NCBI RefSeq assembly: GCF_006345805.1
Contig: NW_021832432.1
Span: 682,001 to 746,000 of the forward strand
DNA from: Octopus sinensis
Lineage: Eukaryota
DNA length: 64,000 bases
Direction of reading: 5' to 3'
Part shown: piece after piece, positions 3,990 to 43,453 of the stretch
Layout of the letters: each line of letters opens with the position of its first letter
Numbering within the stretch: the first letter of the stretch is position 1
Position numbers and translations under genes: made by a program
Notes under the pieces: generated by a model
The model's database searches: none
What the model was told of the DNA's origin: nothing
What the model saw: only the letters and a program-made list of their open reading frames with translations

Positions 3990-4697
3990 TATACAAGAAA
4001 AATATCAGCATGTCGCTACACTTGACTAACGACCACTGGGACAGCGTGATAAAGACATGCTGACTTGTCGGCTTCAAAGCAGCAACTACCTTTGCTCTCT
4101 TAATTTTTCGCTCCAGTCACGGCTGGGTGGAAGTTGCTGTGTGTATCCTTCCGCCGCCAGCTCCGAGTGGGGCGGAGTACAGCTATCGACTGAGTCAATA
4201 GTAAAAACTGACCCACCGGATTTCCTATCGAAAGAAGGTAAGAATTGCTTTCTCATCGTAGTAGCAATTGCGAGAGAGGTGATTTAGAAGACACGAATGA
4301 AAGGGTTAGTAACAGGTTATTTTATCTCTGGCCCTGGGCTGGTGAATTTTTTCACCTTTTATCTAAGAAGGAAAATAGGGCTAGAGAGAAAACGCCTGTC
4401 CGCGAAAATGTTTCAAGATCGATGGAAGAATGTCGCACGAATGTTGCGTATGGATGGGACCGCATGAATACAACTCAGGATGTGCCTAAAACATCAGTGG
4501 TGAGGCGGAGCTCGTGATGTCCGAGCATATCTCGCCTCCCCACTCCATTTTGTAATGTTGTCTTGCTATCATTCGAACTCTTGATATTTATATAAAATTT
4601 TTAAATTCATCTTTATGTCAATTCATACGTTAAATCTGACCCCATATCAGATTGTACTGTTCCCTCTGTGTTGTACCCTTGAGGGAAATAAAAAAAT
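3990..4697 (+). mobile_element. 3' fragment of a Tx1/L1-like LINE (ORF2 C-terminus and 3' UTR), degenerate
   Basis: Translates ...KTRMKGLVTGYFISGPGLVNFFTFYLRRKIGLERKRLSAKMFQDRWKNVARMLRMDG*, homologous to ORF 30726-31037; ends CCCTCTGTGTTGTACCCTTGAGGGAAATAAAAAAAT. The 5' boundary is uncertain. Confidence 0.7.
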
Positions 4698-4882
4698 GCG
4701 AAATGCTTAGCGGTATTTCGTCTGTCTTTATGTTCTGAGTTCAAATTCCGCCGAGGTCGACTTCGCCTTTCAGCCTTTCGGAGTCGATAAATTAAATATC
4801 AGTTACGTACTTGGGGTCGATCTAATCGACTGGCCCCCTCCCTCAAAATTTCAGGCCTTGCGCCTAGAGTAGAAAAGAATAA
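4698..4882 (+). mobile_element. SINE-A, tail-2 type, 5'-truncated
   Basis: B-box-like GAGTTCAAATTCC; central GCCTTTCA.CCTTTCGG.GTCGATAAA core resembling the Deu/Nin domain; tail ...GGCCTTGCGCCTAGAGTAGAAAAG. Confidence 0.85.
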
Positions 4883-7292: not shown

Positions 7293-8803
7293 CGAGGATC
7301 AGCTGAAAAGTTCATAGCCCAACTAAGATACTCTCATGGAAGTTTATTTTTCAACATAGTTCCTCTTGCGGTCCACACGCTTCTGCCATACGTGTTGCAG
7401 TGTTTGGATCTCATTGGCGAAGATCATTTCATCTTATTGATAAAAAAAAAGTCACCAGCAGCAGATATGACGTTACTATCACTGTAATACTGGTTCCCAG
7501 CCAAGTGTTTGTTCATGTTGGGGGACAGATGATAGTCAGATGAGGCCAAATCAGGAGAATAGGGACAGTGATCAAATATTTCAAAGCCACAGTCATGCGC
7601 ATCAGTCACTGAAATCAAGAACTTATGTACTGGAGCATTGTTCTGATGAAACAAAACACCTTTCGTCAGTCTTCTGGGGCGTTTGGTCGTGATAGCTTTT
7701 CGTAACTGCCTCAGCAAGTCAGCATAGTTCTCTCTATTGATGATGCGGCTCTTTTGAAATAGTCAATAAACACATTGACTTTTGCATCCACAAAACAGAG
7801 GCCATCACCTTCCCTGCAGGAGAAACGACCCTGGCCTTCATTGAAGCAGTTGAGTGGAGTGATTCCACTGCATAGATTGTCTCTTTGTCTCTGGCTCAAA
7901 GTGATGAAGCCAACACTCATCCCGGTTTAGGAAATGTTCACGGTAACTAGATGGATCTGCCTCAAACAATATCAAAATTTTCCGTGATGTGATTAGCCTG
8001 GTGCGCTTTTGATCAGGTGTCAGAAGACGTGGAGACCACCAAGCCGAAACCTTCGTTATGCTAAGTTCATTGTGTAGAATATTTTCAACTCTCTCATGGG
8101 ATGTACTAATAGCATTGGCTATTTGATTTTATAGCCAATCGCCAGTCATCCATCACCATGTGGTGAACGCAAACGAGGTTTTCCTCGGTATGGCAGTAGC
8201 AGAACTTCTAGACCTTGGGTCATCTTTAAGACTCTCCATTCCCCTTCTAAATTCAGCTGCCCAGTTTTGCACTGTTGATAAAGCTGAAATGTTATCCTCT
8301 GATGTAGCAACAATGTCAGCATGGATGCCATTAGGGGCTAAACCCTGTTTCTTATTTCTTTACTGCGCACAAATGGCTACACATAGAGGGGACAAACAAG
8401 GACAGACAAACGGATTAAGTTGATTATATCGACCCCAGTGTGTAACTGGTGCTTAATTTATCGACCCCGAAAGGATGAAAGGCAAAGTCGACCTCGGCAG
8501 AATTTGAACTCAGAACGTAACGGCAGACGAAATACGGCTACGCATTTCGCCCGGCGTGCTAACGTTTCTACCAGCTCGCCGTTTAAACCCTGTTTCTGTA
8601 GGTACTTGACAACACCACGATGCCAAATTTTGTCCATTTTCAAGAGAAATCGCTCCTATTTACCTTTGAAGTCAGATGTCAGTTCACCTGAAAAGAAACA
8701 ATGCAATTATCAATAAGAAGTGTTGAAATTAATGCCTGCAAGTTTTTACAGCTCTGGCATCACTCCTTCCTTGTCAGCCCATGCACTTTTCAGCCCACCC
8801 TCG
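7293..8803 (-). mobile_element. Full-length degenerate mariner (irritans-like), interrupted by a SINE
   Basis: TIRs CGAGGATCAGCTGAAAAGTTCAT and CGAGGGTGGGCTGAAAAGTGCAT, TA on the left; transposase pieces MDKIWHRGVVKYLQKQGL, GVLFHQNNAPVH, HCPYSPDLASSDYHL; frameshifted. Confidence 0.92.
8353..8583 (-). mobile_element. SINE-A, tail-1 type, inserted in the mariner
   Basis: Full head to tail; 14-bp TSD TAAACCCTGTTTCT at 8339-8352 and 8584-8597. Confidence 0.92.
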
Positions 8804-9677
8804 CAGAAAAAAGTTTTCTGTTAAATTACACTGCTAGGAGGTTTTGTATATGTAAACTCATGGTATATCACTGCTGACACGCACATCATAGATTCGCTAT
8901 CCCTAATTAGGATAAACACGAGTTTTTGAGATGTTTCTGTTCGTGGGTGGACAAGAGACTGAAACATGCAAGATGGAAATTATAAGCTGGAGTGAAATAT
9001 AGTAATGTAGGCTATATAGGGATATCACACAACATAATATACGTTGTACAGGTTAAGTAGCTCTGTTATAGGTTACACAGGTGCGATATATTTATTTGCT
9101 GATATATTATGTAGATTATGCAACTATAATACGTCACAGGTATTATTTTTATATGTGTTCATCCTCTTGATGCTTGATGTTAAGATCTTAGATGAGCGTT
9201 CTCAAGTACTTCACCACCAGCATGTTGTTATAATAAATATTTTTGTATCTTCTGTTTAATGATAGAGAGTGCATTTCAAGTTACTATGTAATCGAATGAT
9301 TTTATTAGTTTATTACCTAAGGAAAAGTTATATAGGTATAATATAACGTGATGGAAAATACGCAATATCTTAATAGAGACTATGTAGATATGTTTGTGCT
9401 GTAAGCTGCTGCCGAATGATAGCGATCGGCGGTTTATTAAAATTCATATTACAGAATGAAAGATGGAAGGTAAAAAATTTAATCGTATCTGAATTTGAAT
9501 TTAGATCGCAGGCATTTGATAAGCCGGGGTCTTTCCTGTTTCTGCCCGCTCATAGCCCCAGAACAAAATTGTGAGGTGTGTAGAAACCGCATAGAGGATT
9601 GCGGTTATAGTAATTTAACGCTAATATCTAGGTATCAATTTGATACGATTTGGATCACAACATTAAGATTAGAAGGT

Positions 9678-10075
9678 AAGGCGGCGAGCTGGCAGAAACG
9701 TTAGCACGCCGGGCGAAAAGCTATGCAGTATTTCGTCTGCCGCTACGTTCTGAGTTCAATTTCCGCCGAGGTCGACTTTGCCTTTCATCCTTTCGGGGTC
9801 GATTAAATAAGTACCAGTTACGCACTGGGGTCGATATAATCGACTTAATCCATTTGTCTGTCCTTGTTTGTCCTGCCTGTGTTTAGCCCCTTGTGGGTAG
9901 TAAAGAAATTGGTATTTCGCCTGTCTTTATGTTCTGAGTTCAAATTCCGCCGAGGGCGACTTTGCTTTTCATCCTTTCGGGGTTGATAAATTAAGTACCA
10001 GTTGTGTACTGAGGTCGATCTAATCGACTGGCCCACCTCCCCCAAAATTTCGGGCCTTGTGCCTAGAGTAGAAAA
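9678..10075 (+). mobile_element. Composite (dimeric) SINE-A: head-body-tail1-body-tail2
   Basis: One 17-bp TSD CATTAAG(A/T)TTAGAAGGT at 9661-9677 and 10076-10092 flanks the whole dimer. Confidence 0.9.
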
Positions 10076-10679
10076 CATTAAGTTTAGAAGGTGTGTATAA
10101 TCATGAAGGCTTTTTGTTGTTATTTTTAAGTGTAAGATGGCGATCAGGTAGAATCGTTAGTGCGTGGAGAAAATGCTAAGCAACATATCATCTAGTTGTT
10201 TCTGTTATGAGTTCAAACGCAGTCGACTTTATCTTTCGTTTTTTCGAGGTCGATGAAATAAGTAGCAGGTGAAGACAAAGACAGGGGACAATGGGATCGA
10301 CTTACTTTCCTCTCTTAAAATTCCTTGAAATTGCTGGCCTTGGGCCAAAATTTGAAACCATTATCATTTTAAAGCGTTGCTAACTATTACGAATTACTAA
10401 CGATACTCTGTCGACGAACCAAAACTCTTTCTCCATGGCACAGTGAAGAACAGATCCAGATAGCTGTGAGCTTGGGTTCGAGCAGTAGTCGACCAAAATA
10501 TACTGGGGATTCCGCGTTAACATTCACCTTTGGTGTTGCTCTGTGGTAGGATTCCTAGTTTTCTGATTGTGTTTTATCTCGAGACACTTGGCTCTAACTT
10601 GAGCATATACAATAAAACCGAGGTTTACCATTCTAAATACATAATAATAATATATTAAAATATATGTGGTACAATGCTG

Positions 10680-10904
10680 GAGCTGGCAGAATTGTTAGCA
10701 CGCCGGGCGAAATGCGTAGCCGTATTTCGTCTGCCGTTACGTTCTGAGTTCAAATTCCGCCGAGGTCGACTTTGCTTTTCATCCTTTCGGGGTCGATAAA
10801 TTAAGTACCAGTTATGCACTGGGGTCAGTGTAATTGACTTGATCCTTTTGTCTGTCCTTGTTTGTCCCCTCTGTGTTTAGCCCCTTGTGGGTAGTAAAGA
10901 AATA
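10680..10904 (+). mobile_element. SINE-A, tail-1 monomer
   Basis: 12-bp TSD GGTACAATGCTG at 10668-10679 and 10905-10916. Confidence 0.92.
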
Positions 10905-10953
10905 GGTACAATGCTGTCAGTGTAATCAAATAATACAATTATCTAGGTATAAT

Positions 10954-11536
10954 CCTTTTTACTATAGGTACAAAGCCTGAAATTTGTGGGGAGGAGGCCA
11001 GTCAATTAGATCGACCCCAGTACGCAACTGATGCTTAATTTATCGATTAACTGGTGCTTAATTTATCGAAAGGATGAAAGGAGAAGTCGACCTCGGCGGA
11101 ATTTGAACTCACAACGTAAAGACAGATGAAATACCTATTTCTTTACTACCTATAAGGGGCTGAACACAGAGAGGACAAACAAGGACAGACAGATGGATTA
11201 AGTCGATTATATCGACCCCAGTGCGTAACTGGTACTTATTTAATCGACCCCGAAAGGATGAAAGGCAAAGTCGACCTCGGCGGAATTTGAACTCAGAACG
11301 TAGCGGCAGACGAAATACCTATTTCTTTACTACCAACAAGGGGCTAAACACAGAGGACAAACAAGGACAGACAAACGGATTAAGTCGATTATATCGACCT
11401 CAGTGCGTAACTGGTACTTATTTAATCGACCCCGAAAGTCGACCTCGGCGGAAATTGAACTCAGAACGTAGCGGCAGACGAAATATTGCTAAGCATTTCG
11501 CCCGGCGTGCTAACGATTCTGCCAGCTCGCCGCCTT
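10954..11536 (-). mobile_element. Composite (trimeric) SINE-A: head-(body-tail1)x2-body-tail2
   Basis: One 16-bp TSD ATTATCTA(G/C)GTATAAT at 10938-10953 and 11537-11552. Confidence 0.9.
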
Positions 11537-11817
11537 ATTATCTACGTATAATAACACCTATGACCAGCTGGTACACATTTCATCGACTCCGAAAGGATGA
11601 AAGGCAAAGTTGACCTCGGTAAAATTTGAACCCGGAACGGACAAAATGTCGCTAAACATTTTGCCTGGCGCGCTAACGATTCTGTCAGTTCGCCGCATTT
11701 CCTTGCCCGAAATATTAGTTCTTTTTTCTCTTTTTATATCTTCACCACATCTCTCGAAAGTTTTCTGGTGTAACATTTCTTTATTTCAAATAAAGTGATT
11801 CAATCTACTACACTACA

Positions 11818-15047: not shown

Positions 15048-15864
15048 GAGATTTGAACTCAGAACGTAGCTAAATGCTGTTAGGTACTTTGTTTTACCAG
15101 TGCACTAAAATAATCCCCCCCCCCTCCGCTCTCCTATTCTTTTATTGTTGGCTTTCTTCTCTGCCAGTTTCTGTTTTCGAACTGATAAGCTATTTCTCTT
15201 CTACTTCATTACATCGTAACAAACATATATATATTTTGAAATCTGAATTCGTTTAGAAAATATCAGACAGTATTACTATTTCTCCTCCACAATGAGAAAA
15301 CCTAGGATATCCATAACAACTTATTGTATTGCGAAAACAAAGAAAGTCAAAGTTTGATACGTTTATTTTCCGCTATGGTAATTCATCTCAATTTAGCTTT
15401 TCTTCAAAACTGAATAACAAATTACGAAGACATACAAGGCATGACGATTTTGAAAAATTACCTTTCGATACCATGTTAAAACTTACACCAACTTACACCG
15501 TACCGGTATTTCGTTTTCAGAAAACGTGCATCGATTTTGGAAAATAAAATAAAATAAACCTTAAAAATAAATGGGAGCTATTCGTTCAATTTGACAGCAC
15601 AACGTTTTCGTTAAGTAATCTGAACTGTGGAAGCAAAATAGCAGTAAAAAGATAAATTATGAGTTTGAGGCAAGAGGATTCTACAGAACTTTTGTTAATT
15701 TAATTGTCAGGGATACAACGAATTATTTGAAAATGTTACTCGTTGGAGACATGCCGACTATCCAGGGAGCTATACATCTCTTCCATTTAGCGTTTCTGAA
15801 TTTAGAGCAAAACATTAGCTTTTGTATTTTAGTAAATTGTGGAGACATTGATCCTTATCGATTT

Positions 15865-17947: not shown

Positions 17948-18172
17948 GTTTCTTTTTATTACCCACAAGGGTCTAAACATAGAAGGGACAAACAAGGACA
18001 GACAAACGGATTAAGTCGATTACATCGACCCCAGTGCATAACTGATACTTAATTTATCGACCCCGAAAGGATGAAAGGCAAACCCGACCTCGGCGGAAAT
18101 TGAACTCAGAACGTAACGGCAGACGAAATACGGCTACGCATTTCGCCCGGCGTGCTAACGGTTCTGCCAGCG
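17948..18172 (-). mobile_element. SINE-A, tail-1 monomer
   Basis: Nearly identical to 8353-8583. Confidence 0.9.
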
Positions 18173-18885: not shown

Positions 18886-20568
18886 GCTTCTTTATTGCCC
18901 ACAAGGGGCCAACACAGAGGGGACAACACAAAGATATGTGGGTACACATAACAAATAATTGAAAAATGGGAAAACGTATGATATAATGAATGATAAAAAA
19001 TGAAAATGAGAAATGGAATGAAGTTTCCTCTGCCCCACCTCTGAGTTACTTCATTTTGCGTCTGTTCTTTTTTCCTTTTAAACCCGGAGCCTTCCAAAAT
19101 GTCCACTCCGTACTCCTTCAGTAAGAACGTGTAATCCATATTCTCTGGCAGTTTTTGAATGTATAGATCGACTTGCCATATTTTATATGCTTTTTTAAAT
19201 TTTACAATTTTCTCTCTTTGGTTTTCGTCCAACAACTGGCAGCAATGCCACCCTTGCACGTTGTCGAACTTGTGAGTGTCCACCGCTCTAATGTTCTTCC
19301 ACTTTTTTTTTTTATTTCTTCATACAATTTTTTATTTGTGTTATCATACTTCATTACATAGTTTACTTGCTTTTTTTTCCGGGGGAGGGGAGATTGAAAT
19401 GCTTGTGTCTGACTGTGTTTGTTTTCGTGTTGGAGGGGGCGGGGCGGGTAGGTTCAGTGTCTGTAGGGAGCGGGTGGGTTTCGGTATTTATTTTACTGGT
19501 TTCTTACTTTTTCTCTTTTTCTTTCCTGGTGTCACCCATTCGTCTTCCGTTCCACCTGCTTCTTCTGTTACTACTGGTAGTGGTATTGTTTCCTCCTTTT
19601 CTTTTACTGGTTCTTCCATTTTTCTTTGTAGAGGACAGTTTGCTCTAATGTGACCTTTCTGGCCATACTTATAGCACCTGGGTATCCTGCCCTCTACTCT
19701 GACTACCATCGTTGTATCTCTAAACACTTTTGTTTCCGGTAGTTCTTCTATTATATCGTTTGGTCCCCATATCCCCATATTTAATGGGGGATATGGGGAC
19801 CTTTTCAATTCCTTGTTTCCGTTTTGGTGGCCTGGAGAACCTCCATCTCTTCCTCGTTACCAGGCAGAGTTGACATCCGGGGCGACTACTATTACGTTGA
19901 ACTTTATACCACTCTTACTACTATATATTGGCAACAAAGTTACTTCCTCGTTCTTCAATATTATTGACGAGTTTAAACTTGCACTGCCTACATCATTTTA
20001 TTGGACTTTAATTGTACCAAATTTATTGCCTCTTGTTACATACTCTATATCCTGCCATACGTGCCTTAGAACCTTCTCCACTTGGGTCGTGTCATCTCTT
20101 TGATTCTTCCTTCTGCCATTGAGTGTGTTTTATACGCTACCGTACATCTTGTTATTTTGTCAATCATCTCCATTGACGCGGTTACTTCTACCTTTGTTCC
20201 GTCTCTTTTCATCATTTTGGAGTACTTCTTCCGTTCTCTCAAATCTACTCTACTTACTGACACCTTAGACACTCTTGCGTAGCTTCTTTCATTCCTGTTA
20301 GCCCACGAAGTGACCGACTGCTCAGAATCGGACACTTCAGTGTAGCTAATATCTGACGAGCTGAATTCTTCCATTTTTACCTGGCTTACCTTCTTCTATG
20401 AGGAGGTAAGGCACAACTAGGCTGCCACAGGGCAGCAAAAAGCCCAAGTGTTCAAAGAACACTACAATTAACAACGATAATCTCAACAGTAACTTTACTT
20501 TAACAATATCTACGTGAACACTCGATCAGCAACAAAAACTACTACAAGTGAGAAAATTCAAACCTGCG
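18886..20568 (-). mobile_element. ORF1-only non-autonomous non-LTR retroelement (HAL1-like, Tx1/L1-related)
   Basis: 22-bp TSD GGTCATACTA(G/A)CAGAGGAACCT at 18864-18885 and 20569-20590; ORF1 only; 3' end GTCCCCTCTGTGTTGGCCCCTTGTGGGCAATAAAGAA. Confidence 0.8.
19030..20374 (-). pseudogene. Disrupted ORF1 (gag-like nucleic-acid-binding protein with a zinc knuckle)
   Basis: Pieces 20066-20374, 19488-19808 and 18852-19283; VRVEGRIPRCYKYGQKGHIRANC is a degenerate CX2CX4HX4C, followed by EWVTPGKKKRK. Contains stops and frameshifts; no RT or EN motifs seen. Confidence 0.75.
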
Positions 20569-29969: not shown

Positions 29970-30207
29970 CTATTATCGACTCCAGTATTCAACTGGTACT
30001 TATTTCATCGACCCCGAAAGCATGACAGGCAAAGTCGATCTCGGCGGAATTTGAACCCTATACGTTCTGAGTTCAAATTCCACCGAAGTCGACTTTGCAT
30101 TTCATTCTCTCGAGGTTGATAAATTAAGTACCAGTTGAGTACTGGGGACTATGCAATCGACTGTCCCTCTCCCCCAAGTTTCAGGCCTTGTGCCTATATT
30201 AGAAAGG

Positions 30208-42726: not shown

Positions 42727-43453
42727 TACTGGCGAAAATAAATTTAAGACCGATGATAAGAGTTCTATTTCTTACAAAATATTCTGTTACTAGTCCTTTG
42801 CCGATCTTTATATTGACCAGTCTCCGAGTATAACTTCCACGCTCGCACGTAAGCTGGTTTACTGCACTTTAGTTGCTTGCTGATGTTCGAAAAGGAAACT
42901 TTTTGCTGTAATATACTATTTTTGCTCTCGTGACTGGACTAAGGCTACGTTGTTTTCCCATTATTAATAAATTGTATAATAACATTAAATTATAACTTTA
43001 TATGGTGCATTTAGGCTCGTTGTGTGACCACCCATTTTGGCCAAAAAAATTGCATACATATTACATGGTCTTAAACTAATTTTGCCGGTAAATTTGAAAC
43101 GTTTATATTACGTTCTGAGTTCAAATTCCGCCGAGGTCGACTTTGCCTTTCATCCTTTCGGGGTCGATAAATTAAGTACCAGTGACGCACTGGGGTCGAT
43201 GTAATCGACTTAATCCGTTTGTCTGTCCTTGTTTGTCCCTTCTATGTTTAGCCCCTTGTGGGCAGTAAAGAAATATATATTAATTTAGCATTAGAATTCT
43301 TCAAGTTGTATAAAAATTGTTTGCATCATTCGAAAGAGAAATAAATTTTGCATAAGGTGTAAAAGATATAGATAATGTGTATGGTGTTAGTAACAAAATA
43401 TTTTGTAAGAAATAGAACTTTTATCGTCGGTCTTAAATATATTTTCGCCGGTG
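42727..43453. mobile_element. Tc1/mariner-type MITE with ~65-bp TIRs, containing a SINE-A at 43110-43273
   Basis: TACTGGCGAAAATAAATTTAAGACCGATGATAAGAGTTCTATTTCTTACAAAATA and its reverse complement at ~43390-43453; TA on the right. Confidence 0.82.

Follow-up and report, generated by a model that had tools for sequence, protein, structure and literature searches.

How does a short interspersed element (SINE) come to stand in head-to-tail chains in which several bodies share a single head, a single terminal tail and a single target-site duplication (TSD)? The question is raised by a stretch of 64,000 nucleotides of Octopus sinensis DNA (contig NW_021832432.1, positions 682,001 to 746,000; hereafter the window), which holds a dimer with the architecture H-B-T1-B'-T2 at 9679-10075 on the forward strand (+) and a trimer with the architecture H-B-T1-B-T1-B'-T2 at 10954-11536 on the reverse strand (-). 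The letters stand for four modules: a 50-nt head (H), a 118-nt body (B) that begins GTATTTCG, tail 1 (T1; 64 nt plus A, terminating in GGGTAGTAAAGAAATA) and tail 2 (T2; 46 nt, terminating in CTAGAGTAGAAAA), with B' denoting a body of the T13/T15 type. The chains were read directly and were also mapped with profile hidden Markov models (HMMs) of the modules, for which the dimer was cut into its four parts, profiles were made from genomic copies and these were mapped back. On balance we favor an origin of the chains by nested retrotransposition at a fixed spot in older sister copies, to which the spread of whole chains probably adds.

As an earlier note on this DNA had claimed, each of the two chains lies inside one TSD, of 17 nt for the dimer and 16 nt for the trimer. 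The left copy of the dimer TSD, CATTAAGATTAGAAGGT (9661-9677, +), is repeated with one mismatch at 10076-10092 (+), the pattern of both copies being CATTAAG[A/T]TTAGAAGGT. Between them, the head (9679-9727, +; HMM H 1-50) has A-box-like letters and ends in a hairpin loop. It is followed by a 184-nt unit (9728-9911, +; HMM B 1-118 and T1 1-64; period 184, repeat family D2) made of the first body (9728-9845, +), with the B-box-like GAGTTCAATTTCC, and tail 1 (9846-9911, +), and then by a last unit (9912-10075, +) made of body' (9912-10029, +) and tail 2 (10030-10075, +). In the trimer, all on the reverse strand, the TSD copy next to the head, ATTATCTACGTATAAT (11537-11552), differs at one position from the copy next to tail 2, ATTATCTAGGTATAAT (10938-10953), the pattern being ATTATCTA[G/C]GTATAAT. 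Its single head (11488-11536) leads into a first tail-1 unit (11321-11485, joint 11312-11328), the body of which (11383-11485) is shorter than the 118-nt model and the tail 1 of which occupies 11321-11382. A second tail-1 unit follows (11137-11318, joint 11128-11144; body 11201-11318, tail 1 11137-11200), and then a last unit of body' and tail 2 (10954-11134; HMM B 72-118 and B 1-93), with a 21-nt inner repeat (repeat family D11) in its body (11000-11134) and with tail 2 at 10954-10999. The three inner joints of the two chains (in the dimer at 9902-9918) are identical, AAAGAAAT(A/T) being followed each time by GGTATTTC, and the single joint position seen by the earlier note was therefore upheld: the joint pattern AAAGAAATNGGTATTTC matches the window three times (9902, 11128, and 11312) with 0.17 matches expected, and three matches were reached in none of 100 shuffles.

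The joint is not peculiar to this locus. Exact patterns were counted in the whole 2.72-Gb host genome, where every reversed-pattern control gave 0 matches, and the joint 24-mer GGTAGTAAAGAAATNGGTATTTCG was found 26,569 times, a tail-1 22-mer 60,162 times and a tail-2 21-mer 9,432 times; both tail counts exceed the 100 copies that define a SINE as a short interspersed repeat. Architecture was determined in a parsed set of 244 elements or chains, drawn from 90 targeted 3-kb loci and 864 kb of unselected DNA (eight 100-kb blocks plus the window). In loci that had not been selected for a joint, the module after an internal tail 1 starts at body positions 1-3 (B1-3) in 45 of 55 cases, at head positions 17-18 (H17-18) in 8 and elsewhere in 2, and hence the junction positions, which the earlier note had proposed to tabulate beyond the window, are fixed and not random (53/55 at two spots). 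At the second joint, a variant of tail 1 (tail-1b), GGGCAATAAAGAAATA, is joined to head position 17 (AGAAACGTTAGC); tail-1b directly before AGAAACG has 1,670 exact genome matches. Units measure 184 nt at the first spot and 217 nt at the second, both types are mixed in single chains, chains range from 2 to at least 10 units, and they end in tail 1 (14 chains) or in tail 2 (22 chains). Among 30 tail-2-centered loci, the last body comes after the first joint in 11; another 3 show the second joint, 9 have an own head, and 7 are truncated or otherwise built. The two tails that the earlier note had made an obligatory formula were thus too narrow a description, as tail-1-ended chains and a second joint type exist, and a fixed complex-SINE architecture amplified as one unit is not what we found, since unit number, chain ends and unit types all vary. 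In the unselected DNA, 12 of the 33 SINE tail-1 ends are internal and 21 terminal, and there are 19 one-body copies ending in tail 1 vs. 10 composite loci.

The tail variant predicts the joint spot and, likewise, the start of ordinary flanks. Internal ends of the variant tail-1a (..GGGTAGT..) have GGTA next in 51/62 cases, and internal tail-1b ends (..GGGCAAT..) have AGAA next in 8/10. At terminal ends, flanks beginning AGAA or AATA adjoin 2/21 tail-1a and 11/18 tail-1b copies (p = 0.0016), and flanks beginning GGTA adjoin 4/21 and 0/18, respectively (p = 0.11). The bodies also differ by the tail that follows them, as the earlier note had noticed in the window: in the larger sample, bodies before tail 1 carry C13/G15 and those before tail 2 carry T13/T15, a distinction that is real but incomplete, as 7/26 last bodies before tail 2 are of the tail-1 type at position 13.

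Target-site duplications, counted when they scored at least 10, flank 8/11 tail-1-ended and 12/18 tail-2-ended chains, compared with 11/18 tail-1 monomers, 5/11 tail-2 monomers and 1/290 mismatched flanks that served as the control. A single TSD thus surrounds 20 of 29 complete chains, which are about as often flanked as monomers; each chain is one event or one host. Within 19 short chains the units have average similarities of 0.84-0.96, and between chains the similarity is 0.878 (4,013 pairs), so that units are not more alike within than between arrays, as they would be in a SINE-derived satellite, with the exception of one chain of at least 10 units (0.94).

Evidence on how a joint is made comes from copies that still have their heads. 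Three full-length copies inserted at the GGTA spot were seen in two sampled loci; their TSDs are GGTAT (twice) and ~19 nt. Genome-wide, a head end followed by GGTAT, 0-16 nt and a new head has 76 exact matches, which represent ~56 separate loci when counted from the rows with each of five minisatellite clusters taken once; tail 1 followed by GGTAT, 0-16 nt and a new head has 146, and roughly two thirds of the 100 of these that were listed have body-like letters in between. At the second spot, a head followed by AGAAA, 0-16 nt and a new head has 38 exact matches. In most of the listed rows the stretch before the new head continues the body or head of the sister copy for a variable number of letters. 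A fixed start with a variable length is as expected if the first nick is always at one position and the second is not. One of the two readings offered by the earlier note, site-specific insertion of tail-1 SINEs into their sisters, is supported by these full-length copies, exactly at the spot and with variable-length TSDs beginning GGTA. Host-type T13/T15 letters occur in the first unit of 3/22 tail-2-ended chains vs. 0/43 monomers and tail-1-ended chains (p = 0.035), and such first-unit chimeras fit a joining inside the TSD.

In the mechanism that we propose, a tail-1 SINE copy would be reverse-transcribed at a nick in a fixed spot of an older sister copy. The main spot would lie between A and GGTATTTCG, in the hairpin loop between head and body, and a rarer one between A and AGAAACG in the head. 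The incoming copy would usually lose its head: a TSD made at the main spot would consist of the first body letters, and the upstream target end could therefore pair with the new complementary DNA (cDNA) once the body had been copied. Alternatively, the head might be lost by later recombination of two adjacent heads. Either route would leave H-[B-T1]-B-tail and would add one headless unit per event, of 184 nt or, at the second spot, of 217 nt. The aim would come from the endonuclease of a sister lineage of the long interspersed element (LINE) described below, and finished chains, which have a head and a terminal tail, would presumably also be copied whole.

From tail-1-like ends with no SINE body in front of them we arrived at two relatives, an element that has only open reading frame 1 (ORF1-only) and, beside one such element, a LINE with ORF1 and an intact ORF2 of 1,132 residues with the domains Exo_endo_phos, RVT_1 and zf-RVT. 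The last 70 nt of the LINE match tail-1 model positions 3-62, and tail 1 is accordingly shared with a LINE of the same genome, as in a LINE-tailed SINE. At least 115 ORF2 copies, 89-100% alike, were found, and the family is young. In one lineage, all four full-length copies (on three contigs), one 5'-truncated copy and one ORF1-only element have the 3' flank ACATGGAGGAAAGCACC.., and this common flank makes the lineage site-specific, in further agreement with the insertion reading of the earlier note; the constant target is itself a repeat. Further LINE lineages have different constant flanks, and LINEs and ORF1-only elements are also arranged head to tail. The available portion of a study of Octopus vulgaris describes L1-Tx1 families as recently active (PMC13282606). 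In our protein search with the LINE, the matches bore no clade names, the best named one being a hypothetical protein of Argonauta hians (58% identical). The best 30 loci of the endonuclease family PF14529, tried as a route to the autonomous partner, had no ORF1 relative. A LINE with a 3' end matching tail 2, which the earlier note had suggested identifying, was sought beside all LINE loci retrieved, and tail-2 letters stood beside none of them.

The ORF1-only elements are ~1.7-2 kb long, have the LINE tail without ORF2, and in several copies include a CCHC knuckle; all 8 intact ORF1 copies retrieved belong to them. One lies in the window, from 18888 to ~20400 (-; 5' limit approximate), with a tail-1b-like tail at 18888-18933 and at least 48 genomic matches. 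Its frames are at 19488-19856 and 20066-20395, the first having by eye a zinc-knuckle-like CX2CX4HX4C, and its relatives carry Pfam zf-CCHC. One ORF1-only element also adjoins the SINE target. A tail variant, CCCCT[AG]GTGGGTAAT.., has 62 pattern matches directly before GGTATTTC, and 2 of 12 such loci examined are non-SINE, one being an ORF1-only element and the other a non-SINE 3' region with this tail, each abutting CGGTATTTC of a SINE chain. That a LINE relative adjoins the very spot used by the SINE again favors site-specific insertion, although no autonomous LINE copy was seen at the SINE spot in these 12 loci. Head-to-tail arrangement takes several forms among the relatives. At L218 (G000:C9:487000-496000), five ORF1-only elements lie head to tail ~1.7 kb apart, and three of the five have ..ATGTAGAGAAAAAAGG between their 3' end and the next 5' end, which suggests repeated insertion at a regenerated target or unequal exchange between TSDs. 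At L264-L265 (G000:C9:76606000-76626000), tandem 5'-truncated LINE copies are ~3.57 kb apart and always have the flank AGATTATTTGATGAAG... Remains of mariner-type transposases were seen near LINE-type tails at L216 (693-1601, -) and in BLK3 (15076-15500; G000:C1:60015076-60015500).

As for the head itself, the SINE has by eye what we take to be A-box-like and B-box-like letters (GAGTTCAAATTCC), judged against the box consensus motifs. ARAGORN reported no tRNA genes and Rfam no matches at E-values up to 1, and these searches gave no support to a tRNA origin of the head.

Several observations weigh against nested insertion as the whole explanation, and we consider them together with the alternatives that they would favor. 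Best placed among these, although we regard it as rather unlikely as a full account, is the possibility that joints arose once or a few times in composite master elements and that whole chains then spread as RNA polymerase III transcripts primed at the terminal tail 1 or 2, their unit number and order being changed by homology-driven template switching of the reverse transcriptase (RT) or by unequal recombination between source genes. The single TSD around whole chains, units that are equally diverged within and between chains, and the strict tie of each joint type to one tail variant would all follow. Head-bearing intermediates amount to <1% of headless joints (76 + 146 vs. 26,569), which means that the head is lost in almost every event or else that most joints were multiplied through the copying of whole chains. 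Variant C16 is present in 27/63 chain units vs. 2/28 monomers (p = 0.0006) and the body haplotype CGCTAACA in 13/67 vs. 0/29 (p = 0.008), and chain units are therefore no random draw from the RNAs that make monomers. The heads of tail-2-ended chains are younger (divergence from consensus 0.093) than those of tail-2 monomers (0.149, p = 0.0013) and resemble the heads of tail-1 monomers (0.077), which is a poor fit to insertion into standing tail-2 monomers. The body chimeras in 7/26 last units are not predicted by simple nesting either, first units show no correlation in age with last units (rho -0.01, n = 22), and the sharing of variants between the first and last units of chains is marginal, being reached by 118/2,000 permutations, a result that the masters can claim as slight support. 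Against the masters, almost all chains differ in their combination of unit haplotypes, with unit types mixed, which few masters would not yield. They also leave unexplained why the joints are at motifs preferred at ordinary tail-1 targets, why head-bearing insertions with variable TSDs occur at both spots, and why an ORF1-only element is at the same spot. The other reading of the earlier note, a two-tailed master RNA copied by two machineries, is not needed for the joints, but may be a way for finished chains to spread.

Two further observations are difficult for nested insertion and are better accommodated by end-to-end template jumps, in which the RT would come to a discrete 5' end on a SINE RNA and jump to the 3' end of another tail-1 RNA within one integration. 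Such a 5' end would be due to a cut or block, either in the hairpin loop (at GGUAUUUCG) or in the loop that holds AGAAACG. First, 10/33 stand-alone 5'-truncated copies start at B1-3, one of them (L033) with its own TSD, and although some of the ten may be chains cut by the edge of the locus, such starts suggest that an RNA begins or the RT stops at this position. Second, the C5 chain has a 1.55-kb ORF1-only element between tail 1 and the last unit, with a single outer TSD and no inner one, just as inner joints of chains in general have no TSD. In addition, in the predicted fold of the trimer head, the loop of the strongest hairpin ends on its 3' side at the first joint. Template jumps do not, however, predict insertions that bear a TSD and a head, of which there are 76, 146, and 38 exact matches, and no test made here revealed cutting or base modification of the RNA at the joint, and we consider them improbable as the general source of the chains.

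Tandem duplication after insertion, by unequal crossing-over or replication slippage, or a collapse or expansion in the assembly is very improbable as a general cause, despite the one chain of at least 10 units that are 0.94 alike and in part identical, the existence of minisatellites, and short-read contigs that fail to bridge the chains of the window, because short chains have units no more alike than those of different loci (on which ground post-insertion duplication was ruled out), mix tail variants and unit types and are flanked by TSDs, and because 26,569 exact joints spread genome-wide are unlike an artifact. The long chain, L028 (G000:C1:8970109-8971967), consists of tail-1 units that are 0.90-1.00 alike and seems to have been amplified locally afterwards. 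Minisatellites with a period of 65-67 nt, corresponding to the SINE head plus the first body letters, were seen at G000:C3430:1369-2207, C7:15322785-15323088, and C1:195358956-195359254, and repeats of ~26-32 nt built of head starts on C10381 and C9071. The contigs come from four public runs, which carry three or four organism labels; they extend over the unique flanks and element ends and break inside the repeats. Against duplication or an artifact, they link unique sequence to the dimer head (9300 to 9701-9753, three runs), to the dimer tail 2 (10051 to 10349-10353, two runs) and to a monomer at 10680 (10335-10339 to 10702-10709, four runs). Because the chains are bridged by none of these contigs, the unit numbers here are those of the assembly; the contigs are uninformative on inner chain structure, and no empty site is among the joints listed from them.

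Taking these points together, we retain nested insertion as the process that makes the joints and adds units, with whole-chain spread likely besides it and template switching likely contributing. Where the strong aim comes from is a separate matter. Although 12/33 tail-1 ends are internal, the flank motif of free copies is 4-5 nt long, and this motif alone is insufficient for such an aim. It may come from RNA read-through tags, namely GGUAUUUCG after tail 1 in chain transcripts, that pair with the nicked sister copy; pairing of a tag with a nicked target is known for other site-specific LINEs. It is possible, though less likely than not, that the SINE carries its own landing site, in that a lineage of the diversified, site-specific LINE family would aim at the hairpin loop of its parasite SINE. 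Every insertion would then plant a fresh target and a promoter-less unit and so extend the chain by itself. As a further point against nested insertion, a LINE lineage with a tail of exactly the 1a or 1b type that aims at the SINE was not found among the LINE loci retrieved.

Single copies of the same SINE surround the chains. Tail-1 monomers, ~230 nt long by HMM mapping, are present in all four places where the earlier note had put them, at 8354-8582 (-), 10680-10908 (+), 17950-18171 (-), and 43108-43274. The second of these is 5'-shortened by ~8 nt and has the TSD GGTACAATGCTG on both sides (10668-10920 with the TSDs). Of its two tail-2-only copies, one is present at 30057-30205. The other, at 4698-4876 (+; mapped by HMM at 4713-4876), is a tail-2 SINE that lacks the first 36 nt of the head and does not stand free, as a 5'-truncated LINE from the partner family ends directly before it (3' end at 4658-4697, +), with the same letters as LINE 3' ends. 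This LINE end abuts head position 37 of the SINE and may mark a third landing spot in the head. Older relatives in the window (e.g., 10139-10340 and 11553-11699) have the same head and body with neither tail 1 nor tail 2. In the unselected DNA, 76 loci were parsed as B or H-B without either tail, and further tail families of this SINE superfamily must therefore exist.

About one tenth of octopus genomes consists of SINEs (11.6% in O. vulgaris according to the available portion of PMC13282606). If approximately one third of the insertions of one major family enter sister copies, the element limits its own damage to host genes. On the same condition, repeat annotation is inflated, as automated pipelines would split chains into many "families," and a natural setting would be at hand in which to learn how target and 5' joint are determined by a borrowed endonuclease and by RNA-DNA homology during target-primed reverse transcription. 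The chains would also be a concrete route that links interspersed with tandem repeats.

How do these chains compare with known systems? The literature covered, which did not extend to the 1994 work of Ohshima and Okada on octopus SINEs (cited in PMC4758252 and PMC3531059), yielded no account of cephalopod SINEs that form chains by targeting themselves. The comparisons that follow with SINEU-3, complex SINEs and SINE arrays take each published system as described in the available portions of the papers. Complex SINEs (SINEBase, PMC3531059) resemble the octopod chains in having several units, one promoter-bearing head and one TSD, and there are hints of chain-only variants here; they differ in that the octopod chains have no fixed architecture, with 2 to at least 10 units, two mixed unit types and two closing tails, and in that the octopod units are headless parts and not whole SINEs. 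The SINE arrays and satellites of bivalves (PMC11481361) and squamates (PMC10702118) are likewise head-to-tail runs of SINE-derived units, for which unequal recombination is given as a possible origin, the squamate paper also naming insertion at the same locus. In contrast, the octopod joint is at one fixed position genome-wide, short chains are not homogenized, and insertion rather than recombination is indicated by intermediates with TSDs and by the matching site-specific LINE. Half-L1 (HAL1) elements, compared by name, are like the octopod ORF1-only elements (~1.7 kb, with a LINE tail and without ORF2), but the latter form chains and one of them abuts the SINE target spot.

The closest parallel is SINEU-3 of crocodilians and its LINE, Tx1-Mar (Kojima, 2015, PMC4494074). 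In that system 313 of 347 SINEU-3 copies lie in Mariner-N4_AMi, a family is called target-specific when >20% of its flanks are one sequence, and tandem copies arose by sequential insertion at the same site, sandwiching a TSD. As SINEU-3 does with site-specific LINEs of the Tx1 type, the octopod SINE would adopt the target preference of a site-specific LINE family, and in the octopus the share of tail-1 ends followed by the sister SINE (12/33) exceeds 20%, with 53/55 joints at two spots. Tandems that sandwich a TSD are represented here by the three events in two loci and the 76, 146, and 38 matches, most joints being seamless. The partner LINE is known here by its domain order only (Exo_endo_phos, RVT_1, zf-RVT, with CCHC in its ORF1 relatives), and its site-specific lineage targets a sequence other than that of the SINE, whereas the ORF1-only element and the non-SINE 3' region were found at the SINE target (at CGGTATTTC, 2/12 loci). 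The octopod head is not derived from snRNA. The octopod chains are new relative to target-specific SINEs such as SINEU-3 in two respects: the target is inside the SINE's own family, so that every insertion brings a new target, and the incoming copy is nearly always headless, which produces seamless chains behind one head.

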